DNA of 64,000 nt. Source: Escherichia phage EC121. The notes under the pieces are model-generated. The model had not been told where the DNA came from, made no database searches, and saw nothing but the letters and a program-made list of their open reading frames with translations. Location of the stretch: the sequence record NC_054909.1; one strand, written 5' to 3'. Position numbers and translations under genes: made by a program. Shown here piece by piece: positions 5,807 to 38,939 of the stretch; position 1 is the stretch's first letter; each line of letters starts with the position of its first letter.

Positions 5807-6013
5807 TCACAGTTGCCACCATTTTTTGACTTGATAGGAATCAACCCACACTTTCATATTAGGGTCTGCTCTTACAATAGGAGGATTAACTTCTTTAATT
5901 GAACTATCATGGTATTCTTTTTCAGAAATTTTCACACAAAGATGACCGTTCAAAGATTCAGTAAATCCTGCATTAATTTTAAGACGCTTGAATTTTACGT
6001 TTGTAAGCATCAA
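5807..6013 (-). CDS. hypothetical protein (68 aa)
   Basis: minus-strand ORF in operon context. Confidence 0.45.
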   Translation of the reverse strand: MMLTNVKFKRLKINAGFTESLNGHLCVKISEKEYHDSSIKEVNPPIVRADPNMKVWVDSYQVKKWWQL

Positions 6014-6296
6014 TCATATCCTCAATCTGCGATCTAGTAGTCTTCCAAAGAATACTAATGAGTTCATCGTTATATGGCTGTTTTAGAATATCCCGACTTT
6101 TCTTGATAGCATATTCGTATTGAGCAAAATTATTGTTTTCAGCTGCAATCTGAGCGTGCTTATAAAGACGGTTCAGTTCGCGTTTGTTTTTAGACAATAA
6201 CTTATTTGCTTTTCTTTCTGCTTCAAGACGGTTCTTTTCTTCAATAGAAGAAATAAGCTTTTCCACTTCAGCATTAATTTCGGGTTTATCAGTCAT
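5979..6296 (-). CDS. hypothetical coiled-coil protein (105 aa)
   Basis: minus-strand ORF, lysine/glutamate-rich helical sequence. Confidence 0.55.
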   Translation of the reverse strand: MTDKPEINAEVEKLISSIEEKNRLEAERKANKLLSKNKRELNRLYKHAQIAAENNNFAQYEYAIKKSRDILKQPYNDELISILWKTTRSQIEDMIDAYKRKIQAS

Positions 6297-36310: not shown

Positions 36311-36784
36311 TTATTTGATTTGTTTAGCAGACCAAATGCGGTCTTTAATAATTTTTTGGATGTCTTCAACATACCCAAGAGAGTGAGCATGTGGGTTATC
36401 TTTGAAACTATAAGCACGAGCCAGTTTTTGGCCTTCAGTTTTGATTACTAAAAGCTCTTTAAGAATAGCTTCATATTTGGAGATAATTCCTTTAACAATA
36501 TTTTTCTCTTGTGCGACTTTAGGATCTGCTTTAGGAGCAGGTTTACCTGAAGCCTTTGCAAAAGCAGCGCCAGTAGCAACTAAACTTTTCCAGGCCATAC
36601 TAACTGCATTTCCCGTAAATCCTTCCGCTTTCATGTCGCGTGCGAACTGGAATCGCGATTCATCAGAAGCATCTTTGTAAGAATATTTACCCGCTGCAAT
36701 GGCTGCTTTTGCGACAGCTTGAATTTCGGTGCTAGATGCTTCATTTAACACCGCTTCATTTAAAAATTGAGTATATGATTTCAT
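36311..36784 (-). CDS. putative capsid-targeted internal protein (157 aa)
   Basis: N-terminus MKSYTQFLNE resembles capsid targeting sequence with LxE cleavage motif; own late promoter. Confidence 0.6.
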   Translation of the reverse strand: MKSYTQFLNEAVLNEASSTEIQAVAKAAIAAGKYSYKDASDESRFQFARDMKAEGFTGNAVSMAWKSLVATGAAFAKASGKPAPKADPKVAQEKNIVKGIISKYEAILKELLVIKTEGQKLARAYSFKDNPHAHSLGYVEDIQKIIKDRIWSAKQIK

Positions 36785-36824: not shown

Positions 36825-36832
36825 TATTTATA
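36825..36832 (-). promoter_or_regulatory. late promoter box TATAAATA
   Basis: plus-strand TATTTATA about 40 nt upstream of ATG at 36784. Confidence 0.45.
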
Positions 36833-36862
36833 CCAAAAAGCCCCAACCTTTCAGTCGGGGCT
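36833..36862 (-). terminator. intrinsic terminator, near-identical copy of 36274..36303
   Basis: hairpin GCCCCAACC..GTCGGGGC followed by TTTTTGG on minus strand. Confidence 0.55.
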
Positions 36863-37169
36863 AAGCCTTGCGGCAACCTTGTCGGGGTTCCACCTGCTAA
36901 GGCAAGTGTTTGTACGAAACGCCGGGATTCGAACCCGGTTATTAAGCAGTTGACGCTACTCAATATTTTTAAAAGGCCATATCTCGACCATATCCGAACG
37001 TTCCGTCAAAAACGCTACTCGGTTTACGGCAAAGATATTTCCTCGAATCGATAATTCGGTGCGCCGTTTCTGCTGTGATAGTAAAGAGCCAGAACACAGT
37101 AAAACTGTGGGAGGAAACTATACTCCAGGGAACATCAGTCCGACGACTTACCGGTAGCGACCCGGTTTC

Positions 37170-37520
37170 TTAGTATTCTTTTAAAGCATCAACCTGTTCA
37201 CGACGTTTACGCCATAAATCAATTACTTCATACGCAGATTCAGCATTTCGAATTGGACGGCATTTATATAAAGACTTGTGATTTTGATATTGTGTAGATA
37301 ACGGAATTTTATCTAAAAGGTCTTTACGTTCAAAATATTCGTAACCATCTAAACCAAATGAACGATTTTTGAGAAATTGCCAATGACCAAATTCGTTTTC
37401 GACATAAACATAATCTGCATGCTGATAAAGCAAATTAATTACACGTTCAGAAATAACAGTATCATTATGATTAAAATAGAATGTTAAATCATGAACTACT
37501 AAATAAACATTACCTTTCAT
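37170..37520 (-). CDS. hypothetical protein (116 aa) inside tRNA region
   Basis: ATG 18 nt downstream of tRNA-Arg with GAGG RBS. Confidence 0.55.
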   Translation of the reverse strand: MKGNVYLVVHDLTFYFNHNDTVISERVINLLYQHADYVYVENEFGHWQFLKNRSFGLDGYEYFERKDLLDKIPLSTQYQNHKSLYKCRPIRNAESAYEVIDLWRKRREQVDALKEY

Positions 37521-37538
37521 ATTTTCCTCACTTATAAT

Positions 37539-37614
37539 TGGTCGAGGCAGTAGGGATCGAACCTACGACCCAGGACTTAGAAGGTCCTTGCTCTTCCTTC
37601 TGAGCTATGCCCCG
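37539..37614 (-). tRNA. tRNA-Arg (anticodon TCT), CCA encoded
   Basis: manual cloverleaf: acceptor CGGGGCA/TGCCTCG, anticodon loop CTTCTAA, T-arm GTAGG-TTCGATC-CCTAC. Confidence 0.75.
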
Positions 37615-37618
37615 TAAT

Positions 37619-37694
37619 TGGGGTGACCGATGGGAGTCGAACCCATGACTACGAGAATCACAATCTCGAGTTCTACCAACTGAACTACGGCCAC
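37619..37694 (-). tRNA. tRNA-His (anticodon GTG), CCA encoded, no encoded G-1
   Basis: acceptor GTGGCCG/CGGTCAC, discriminator C, anticodon stem CGAGA/TCTCG loop TTGTGAT. Confidence 0.65.
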
Positions 37695-37808
37695 ATTAAT
37701 ACCTACTCCAACAATCATGATGTCTTCACACGAAATTAAGAGAAGAGTGATCAGTTCAACCCCTATAATCGCGTCAAGTAGATATTAATGTGACAGTTGT
37801 CACAAATT

Positions 37809-37883
37809 TGGCGGACGTGATAGGATTCGAACCTATAACCAATCGCTTAACAGGCGATCGCTCTGCCATTGAGCTACACATCC
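37809..37883 (-). tRNA. tRNA-Asn (anticodon GTT), CCA encoded
   Basis: acceptor GGATGTG/CACGTCC, anticodon loop CTGTTAA, T-loop TTCGAAT. Confidence 0.7.
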
Positions 37884-37887
37884 AAAT

Positions 37888-37974
37888 TGGTGGGGAGTGA
37901 TGGAGTCGAACCACCCGAGTCGCAATGACAATGAATTTACAGTCCACACCGCTACCTCTACGGGATAACTCCCC
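37888..37974 (-). tRNA. tRNA-Tyr (anticodon GTA), long variable arm, CCA encoded
   Basis: acceptor GGGGAGT/ACTCCCC, anticodon loop CTGTAAA, 87 nt type II. Confidence 0.6.
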
Positions 37975-37981
37975 CTTAATT

Positions 37982-38056
37982 TGGTGGCCCTGGGTGGAAT
38001 TGAACCACCATCTGGCGATTATGAGTCGCTTGCTTGAACCTTCCAGCTACAGGGCC
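37982..38056 (-). tRNA. tRNA with CAT anticodon (Ile-lysidine type or Met), CCA encoded
   Basis: acceptor GGCCCTG/CAGGGCC, anticodon arm CGACTCATAATCGC as in Ile2-type tRNAs. Confidence 0.7.
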
Positions 38057-38057
38057 T

Positions 38058-38133
38058 TGGTGCTGATTGACGGAATCGAACCGCCGACATCCTCATTACA
38101 AGTGAGGTGCTCTACCTACTGAGCTAAATCAGC
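38058..38133 (-). tRNA. tRNA-Thr (anticodon TGT), CCA encoded
   Basis: acceptor GCTGATT/AATCAGC, anticodon stem CCTCA/TGAGG loop CTTGTAA. Confidence 0.75.
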
Positions 38134-38138
38134 AAAAC

Positions 38139-38228
38139 TGGCGGAGGCGATAGGATTTGAACCTATGAGTCGCCGGAGCGACTGCCGGTTTTCAAGACCG
38201 GTGCATTAAACCACTCTGCCACGCCTCC
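38139..38228 (-). tRNA. tRNA-Ser (anticodon TGA), long variable arm, CCA encoded
   Basis: acceptor GGAGGCG/CGCCTCC, anticodon stem CCGGT/ACCGG loop CTTGAAA, 90 nt. Confidence 0.75.
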
Positions 38229-38230
38229 AG

Positions 38231-38304
38231 TCTCCATACAAGGATTTGAACCTACGACATTCTGCTCCCAAAGCAGACGCTCTACCAAACTGAGCTACAC
38301 GGAG
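38231..38304 (-). tRNA. tRNA-Pro (anticodon TGG), no encoded CCA, 2 nt from tRNA-Ser
   Basis: anticodon stem TCTGC/GCAGA loop TTTGGGA; acceptor CTCCGTG/TATGGAG with wobble pairs. Confidence 0.65.
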
Positions 38305-38314
38305 TAAATTAAAT

Positions 38315-38388
<74 letters not shown>

Positions 38389-38393
38389 AAATT

Positions 38394-38480
38394 TGGTGCG
38401 AGAAGTGGGACTCGAACCCACAAGGAAATAATTCCGCAGCATTTTAAGTGCTGTGCCTTTACCAATTTGACCATTCTCGC
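38394..38480 (-). tRNA. tRNA-Leu (anticodon TAA), long variable arm, CCA encoded
   Basis: acceptor GCGAGAA/TTCTCGC, anticodon stem CAGCA/TGCTG loop CTTAAAA. Confidence 0.75.
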
Positions 38481-38481
38481 G

Positions 38482-38554
38482 CTGGGAATAAAGGACTCGA
38501 ACCTTTGCATCTAGCAGTCAAAGTGCTATGCCTTACCAACTTGGCTAATTCCCA
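38482..38554 (-). tRNA. tRNA-Gln (anticodon TTG), no encoded CCA, 1 nt from tRNA-Leu
   Basis: acceptor TGGGAAT/ATTCCCA, anticodon stem TAGCA/TGCTA loop CTTTGAC. Confidence 0.7.
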
Positions 38555-38651
38555 ATTATTAACAAAGGCTCTCTAACAAGAACCCTTGATGATAGAGGGT
38601 ATTAATCAGTGCGGTATGAGTTAATAATAACAAATAATTCTTAAAGCATAT

Positions 38652-38939
38652 TTACCATTTATGATAATACATATTTACGATGCATTCAAGGCCCAAAGGA
38701 TTCTTGAAAATATCATATTCAAGAGGACCTTTTTCTGTTTCAATAAAGAAATCAAAATTTACTGTATTAAATTTACGGTCTTCCTTCACTAATTTAACTT
38801 GAGAAGATGAACGGTCAACATAAACCTTTTCAACTTCAAAACATGTTAAAACGCCATAATCATCAATCAAGGCTTTAGCTGCTTCTTGATCATATTTATA
38901 TCCATTTTCAATGGATGATACTTTCGCATAAAGAATCAT
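38652..38939 (-). CDS. hypothetical protein (95 aa)
   Basis: ORF in variable ipI-locus. Confidence 0.5.
   Translation of the reverse strand: MILYAKVSSIENGYKYDQEAAKALIDDYGVLTCFEVEKVYVDRSSSQVKLVKEDRKFNTVNFDFFIETEKGPLEYDIFKNPLGLECIVNMYYHKW

Follow-up and report, generated by a model that had tools for sequence, protein, structure and literature searches.

A conserved accessory gene of T2-type T-even phages between the tRNA genes and the stable RNAs rnaD and rnaC, with a possible counter-defence role

What is the open reading frame (ORF) that follows the last tRNA gene of Escherichia phage EC121, and what might its product do? T-even phages serve as the reference system of phage biology, and many of their small accessory genes are still without a known function. 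We analysed a stretch of 64,000 nucleotides (nt) of record NC_054909.1 (hereafter the window), a Tequatrovirus (T4-like) segment whose nearest relatives are Escherichia phages ECP52 and vB_EcoM_G4507 (~98% identity over 2.5 kb) and not T2L. An earlier sequence-only reading had pointed to an uncharacterised 116-aa gene within the tRNA region, and the position of tRNA-Arg(tct) and the program-made ORF list agree with it: the 116 codons run on the minus strand from an ATG at 37520 to a TAA at 37170–37172 (Table 1). The 18-nt distance from tRNA-Arg and the GAGG ribosome binding site that it described also hold in coordinates and in sequence. Exactly 18 nt separate the encoded CCA end of the tRNA from the start codon, and this leader, AUUAUAAGUGAGGAAAAU, is unpaired in the centroid fold. 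The leader with its Shine-Dalgarno sequence is kept in RB68 and in Mosigvirus JK42, and the Shine-Dalgarno sequence and the 18-nt spacing recur in all six full-length Tequatrovirus and Mosigvirus loci checked (RB68, JK42, and four IMG/VR contigs).

Table 1. Coordinates of the ORF, its signals, and the surrounding RNA genes in the window, and of related gene strings in other sequences (labelled L)
Feature	Position	Strand	Basis and remarks
116-aa ORF	37170..37520	-	ORF list; ortholog of T2L trna.2 (CAI54242.1), PHROG 3355 member
Shine-Dalgarno GAGG	37526..37529	-	5 nt before the ATG, within the 18-nt leader 37521-37538
tRNA-Arg(UCU), encoded CCA	37539..37614	-	ARAGORN; Rfam tRNA 63.9 bits; last tRNA of the cluster
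11-tRNA cluster	37539-38554	-	order Gln, Leu, Gly, Pro, Ser, Thr, Met(CAU), Tyr, Asn, His, Arg
rnaD (species 2 RNA) homolog	37058..37173 (about)	-	alignment to T4, RB68, JK42, T2L
rnaC (species 1 RNA) homolog	36913..37051 (about)	-	~98% identical to T4 rnaC
Intrinsic-terminator-like hairpin and T run	36839..36862	-	terminator scan; end of the tRNA/ORF/rnaD/rnaC unit
MotA-box-like middle-promoter match	38624..38648	-	directly upstream of tRNA-Gln; candidate promoter for the unit including the ORF
Homolog/adfN gene strings	L019 321-1589; L020 2149-3417; L005 2783-4007; L014 3001-4125		

Judged by its sequence, the ORF is a gene already on record, trna.2 of phage T2L (CAI54242.1, EMBL AJ880101). 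It belongs to PHROG 3355, a family without an assigned function (E=9.5e-55, covering residues 1–115 of 116), and the database copies examined all bear the name 'hypothetical protein'. The T2L gene is of the same family and stands in the same order (tRNA-Arg, 18 nt, ORF, rnaD), and with an identity to T2 of ~96% there is no substantive difference between the two. Brok-Volchanskaya 2008 (PMC2330249) lists primers #24 and #25 as a probe for the 'T2L trna.2 ORF', described there as of unknown function; they map to 37490–37518 and 37178–37202, respectively, with one mismatch each. In the T4 x T2L crosses of the same study, a T2L segment of ~1250 bp that holds tRNA-Met, Tyr, Asn, and Arg together with trna.1 and trna.2 was almost completely excluded from the progeny, and this exclusion required segB. 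Among the literature on SegB/T2L, T6 Septu, HIDEN-SEQ, accessory-gene screens, and DRT1, only the 2008 paper mentions the ORF; the literature searched contains no direct evidence of its expression or of a phenotype, and no report that it inhibits a defence system.

The name invites confusion, as T2L trna.2 is unrelated to the gene called trna.2 in T4, which encodes 95 aa upstream of tRNA-Gln. The window carries an ortholog of the T4-type gene as well (38652–38939, minus strand), for which Pfam has no family. In a 2026 paper, a pull-down with DRT1 enriched only two T4 proteins, of which T4 Trna.2 is one; that protein is the product of the unrelated T4 gene, and we reject its identification with the ORF studied here.

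By its substitution pattern the ORF is a real gene under purifying selection and not a chance frame. A tblastn search found it full-length and intact in 424 of 50,697 phage records at identities of 30–100%: 100% in vB_EcoM_G4507, 95.7% in T2, 85–100% across T2, RB68, AR1, and Shfl2, ~68% in Mosigvirus, 39% in Winklervirus, and 31% in Mosugukvirus. Tequatrovirus and Mosigvirus copies are separated by dS >1.3. Comparisons between these genera and within a Mosigvirus pair (dS 0.65 to ~2) gave dN/dS values of 0.05–0.14, and close Tequatrovirus pairs gave values of about 0.1–0.4 (Nei-Gojobori in both cases). Seven loci of the family were found in IMG/VR, and a search of the family profile against all six-frame ORFs returned no paralog in the window.

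The gene is dispensable, as it is absent from both T4 and T6, whereas T2 has it. In T4, a single nucleotide lies between tRNA-Arg and rnaD, and the slot of the ORF is empty. With T4 sequence spanning tRNA-Arg and the start of rnaD as a probe, 64 of the 528 matching records showed this direct junction; about 410 records of the E. coli group carry the ORF, so T4 represents the minority state. Most rnaD-bearing T-even genomes, T2 among them, carry the gene. That the model phages T4 and T6 do not is the probable reason why nobody has studied it. Presence and absence are polymorphic even among very close relatives. The synteny comparison that the sequence-only reading had recommended returned the same layout of tRNA-Arg, ORF, and rnaD in AJ880101, RB68, and JK42, and the stop codon abuts rnaD in the Tequatrovirus and Mosigvirus loci examined, with a single exception. 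Shigella phage SP18 (Gaprivervirus) has an unrelated ORF of 79 aa there, with its start 15 nt behind tRNA-Arg (L018 13962–14201, minus strand), so different accessory genes make use of the slot immediately 3' of the last tRNA.

Placing the ORF between the tRNAs and a non-coding stretch, as had been done from the letters alone, is right as to position; the stretch itself corresponds to the stable-RNA pair rnaD and rnaC, and it touches the stop codon. The next coding sequence on this side (lower coordinates) is met only at 36784. At its predicted 5' end, rnaD shares sequence with the TAA stop of the ORF and with the sense codon before it. Where the T4 junction reads ...ACCA-A-AUGAGAAACCGGG, the window reads ...UAC-UAA-GAAACCGGG, so that the equivalent of the T4 rnaD 5' end is the third base of the terminal Tyr codon, which puts the stop codon inside the predicted rnaD. 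Similarly, rnaD overlaps the trna.2 coding sequence by 4 nt in the T2L record AJ880101. A consensus structure from seven rnaD homologs contains eight compensatory pairs and leaves the stop-codon region single-stranded.

The two RNAs differ in how far they have diverged. The central segment of the rnaD homolog is very different from that of T4 and is the T2L variant, and the long stem is still kept. In phage BW1, which likewise has the 116-aa ORF directly upstream of rnaD, a 2025 paper describes a convergent adaptive SNP in this RNA gene. rnaC is 97–99% identical between Tequatrovirus and Mosigvirus, despite the dS of the adjacent ORF given above, and still 82–85% identical in EcS1 and Serratia phage LC53. 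Part of rnaC is labelled 'tRNA-Lys' or 'tRNA-Stop' by tRNA finders and annotators, which reflects its tRNA-like 3' half.

The signals around these genes suggest a single transcription unit of promoter, tRNAs, ORF, rnaD, rnaC, and terminator. Matches to a MotA-box-like pattern (TGCTTYA-N11-13-TANNNT) occur 16 times in the window against 2.2 expected (~7-fold enriched), one of them directly upstream of the first tRNA gene. The ORF is on the same strand as the tRNAs, and the 18-nt gap between them holds neither a terminator nor a strong promoter. On the minus strand, terminator-like sites are found only after rnaC and after the next gene, and the annotation of G4507 places a putative terminator at the site equivalent to the strong terminator-like hairpin behind rnaC. 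The late-promoter motif TATAAATA appears only past this terminator, before the next gene. A further MotA-like site inside the ORF (37407–37432, minus strand), a possible driver of rnaD and rnaC, is not kept in Mosigvirus and is probably due to chance, and weak promoter-like matches near the ORF were likewise judged to be chance. The next gene is a 157-aa ORF (36311–36784, minus strand) without a Pfam family, preceded by TATAAATA at 36825–36832 (minus strand). It is present in RB68 and G4507 and absent from T4 and T2L, and this indel is therefore independent of that of the 116-aa ORF.

The encoded protein has 14.2 kDa, a pI of 6.5, and 16% aromatic residues. It has no Pfam family above threshold, no NCBIfam match, and no sequence relative in the PDB, and these resources, PHROG, and the profile searches returned none of the homology to a characterised housekeeping protein that the sequence-only reading had named as evidence against it. 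A word-indexed search returned 7 and then 13 proteins, and an exhaustive HMM profile search of 1.84 billion representative proteins only 8. Of the eight, P0011 (650 aa) is a spurious match, a repeat protein aligned only along the basic C-terminal helix; three are short fragments, and the rest are full-length at 112–122 aa. Those of the full-length matches that were traced belong to Tevenvirinae phages (PM2, EcS1) or to a T4-like metagenomic contig. The profile search that had been proposed thus yielded relatives of the family and no characterised homolog. A resemblance to DUF2654 (PF10849) is also spurious, at 16 bits over 25 residues against a gathering threshold of 25 bits. The genuine DUF2654 member of the window (5979–6296, minus strand, 145 bits) is an unrelated helical protein, which the profile of the ORF family hits only with E=0.004 (541 ORFs).

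AlphaFold2, run with a 13-sequence alignment, predicted a compact structure with moderate confidence (pLDDT 74.8, pTM 0.70). The model consists of beta strands 4–9, 12–17, 37–41, and 47–52, which form two hairpins around helix 25–34, followed by two short helices and a long C-terminal helix (93–115). A Foldseek search of BFVD matched only uncharacterised Straboviridae proteins (from X20, EcS1, KPV15, Cronus, CIP9, SP18, and Vibrio phages). The protein is thus without a known domain or fold, and its fold is apparently new. Fifteen residues are invariant in the family (Y6, L31, N42, W47, F49, K51, R53, Y62, F63, L68, L69, L84, I90, W103, and R107), and T13, D36, H46, D67, I72, P73, and L74 are nearly so. 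They include a conserved basic and aromatic cluster, in which a catalytic motif is not recognisable. H46, W47, K51, R53, W103, and R107, invariant or close to it, would suit binding of RNA or nucleotides as well as of protein. The protein is not acidic, and we therefore reject a DNA mimic.

T4 carries the homing endonuclease SegB in this neighbourhood, and the claim made from the letters that the ORF has no GIY-YIG or HNH motif stands: Pfam is null for both, hhalign against T4 SegB gives a probability of 0.2%, and we reject a homing endonuclease. Specifically, the protein contains no GIY-X10-11-YIG domain (PF01541) with the conserved Arg and Glu and no HNH beta-beta-alpha-metal finger; nor does it contain a NUMOD3 or helix-turn-helix DNA-binding module, the model being a single compact domain with a long helix and no Pfam match. 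An N-terminal 'GNVY...FYF' recalls GIY-YIG, but the Arg that follows (R26) is not kept in distant homologs. Like the ORF, SegB is free-standing, dispensable, and placed among tRNA genes in the same direction of transcription. SegB, in contrast, has 221 aa with GIY-YIG and NUMOD3 and lies upstream of tRNA-Arg, whereas the ORF lies downstream. The two genes do not exclude each other, since one IMG/VR contig (L007) carries both, with a SegB 84% identical to that of T4 between tRNA-Met and tRNA-Arg.

The surroundings of the gene weakly favour, by association, a role in counter-defence or host takeover. Next to its operon lie the genes of IPI, of the anti-GmrSD family PF11634 (39609–39893), and of the anti-CBASS protein Acb1/57B, PF23474 (39966–40424). 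The homolog also stays in the tRNA region in more distant lineages (EcS1, NM4.3, LC53, PM2, and two metagenomic contigs), where a Phage_30_3 gene lies 0.2–1.3 kb away and start and stop codons sometimes overlap. This gene encodes gp30.3, the NADAR enzyme AdfN, which acts against DarTG1 (bioRxiv 10.1101/2024.07.11.602962). In Tevenvirinae of the non-Escherichia type, the homolog, one or two uncharacterised ORFs of 70–85 aa, and adfN form a tight, partly overlapping string; in Tequatrovirus and Mosigvirus, adfN is located elsewhere. Phage tRNAs themselves counter tRNA-cleaving defences, and the tRNA-Tyr of T6 counters Septu (PMC13096335). T5-like phages have anti-retron genes in a tRNA-rich region (bioRxiv 10.1101/2023.03.15.532788). 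Rad, ORF71-73 of these phages, and AdfN are, like the ORF, small accessory genes amid or adjoining phage tRNA genes, and AdfN is a near neighbour of the ORF family in five lineages; no resemblance of these to the ORF was detected in sequence or fold, and Rad is a 189-aa Toprim-like protein and AdfN a NADAR enzyme. The same is true of the known counter-defence proteins compared, which have solved structures or Pfam families (Acb1, IPI, AdfN/NADAR, nucleotide sponges, and Ocr-like mimics); none was similar to the ORF in sequence or fold. The argument from neighbourhood is weak because the region is generally hyperplastic and the adfN-linked genera are related to each other. The earlier suggestion that genes in such places serve tRNA processing or anti-defence is plausible only by association.

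We consider it possible, with a probability of about 0.4, that the product of the ORF is a small protein without enzymatic activity that is expressed from the tRNA operon and serves counter-defence or host takeover. It would be a soluble 14-kDa accessory protein of T2-type T-even phages and the sole protein-coding cistron of a tRNA and stable-RNA operon that runs from a middle or early promoter through the 11 tRNAs, the ORF, rnaD, and rnaC to the terminator. Its translation would start from the 18-nt leader immediately 3' of tRNA-Arg. The protein would act early or mid-infection, and would bind and neutralise a host factor, most plausibly a component of an anti-phage defence.

The closest contender, which we regard as unlikely, is a factor for RNA or tRNA. 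Its partner would be the phage tRNAs, rnaD and rnaC, or a host enzyme of tRNA processing, and the protein would thereby affect how the RNAs of its own transcript mature, how stable they are, or how they are protected. Room for this reading is left by the overlap of the stop codon with rnaD and by the conserved basic and aromatic residues, but the linkage to the two RNAs is not conserved: EcS1 and LC53 have rnaC in the middle of the tRNA cluster, away from the homolog, and T4 and T6 make rnaD and rnaC without the protein. An obligate partnership with rnaD and rnaC is rejected on these grounds, that is, the RNAs of T4 and the position of the homolog in EcS1 and LC53. That the frame is a chance or decaying one with no protein function has almost nothing left to commend it. 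There is no experimental evidence for the protein, and T4 and T6 manage without the gene; dN/dS of about 0.1 at dS >1.3 nevertheless effectively refutes this reading, and full-length conservation down to 30% identity across genera, the conserved Shine-Dalgarno sequence, and the compact model of moderate confidence also argue against it.

A role in competition between phages, or as a selfish cassette, for example in guarding the T2-type tRNA cassette from Seg-type homing or in excluding co-infecting relatives, is improbable. The segment excluded in the segB-dependent T4 x T2L crosses bears the ORF (PMC2330249), the tRNA region is a hotspot of homing-endonuclease traffic, and the gene comes and goes among very close relatives. 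The ORF did not prevent exclusion by T4 SegB in those crosses, however, in which the T2L markers were almost completely lost (PMC2330249), and one genome has it together with a segB of 84% identity. The protein lacks a nuclease motif and is not homologous to SegB, and the fixed 18-nt boundary at its 5' side and the stop at rnaD in all loci but one, despite dS >1.3, look vertical rather than mobile. The remaining probability belongs to something outside these explanations.

A bolder form of the counter-defence reading, which we hold only tentatively and think rather unlikely, is that the ORF is the founding member of a Tevenvirinae family with a new fold, acting in counter-defence or as a partner of tRNAs or small RNAs, whose expression is hard-wired to the processing of the tRNA precursor. 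In the thrU-tyrU-glyT-thrT-tufB operon of E. coli, tRNAs are co-transcribed with a distal protein gene, and its mRNA is released by tRNA processing. The phage locus would share with this operon the combination of tRNAs and a distal protein gene, provided that the genes are co-transcribed as their layout suggests; it would differ in that the ORF cistron is followed by two processed stable RNAs, the first of which overlaps the stop codon. The mRNA would then start at the trailer of tRNA-Arg and have its stop codon inside the 5' end of rnaD. Because of this position of the stop codon, excising rnaD would leave a non-stop message, and the locus would contain a built-in switch between protein synthesis and stable-RNA production. 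If the overlap matters, it would open a first functional approach to the species 1 and species 2 RNAs, whose role has been obscure for decades.

As it stands, the ORF is an ordinary conserved hypothetical phage gene. Its place amid proven counter-defence genes and tRNAs that counter tRNA-cleaving defences makes it a reasonable and cheap candidate for screening, and the natural polymorphism between T2 and T4/T6 offers ready-made controls.

The tRNA cluster has one more segment with a structural signal. The 114-nt spacer between tRNA-Asn and tRNA-His (37695–37808, minus strand) has no match in Rfam and folds at -32.7 kcal/mol (z=-3.7). About 190 phage records match it at an identity of at least 95%, and the records among the matches listed annotate only the flanking tRNAs there. 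This spacer could be a degenerate tRNA, or else one more small structured RNA belonging to the cluster.
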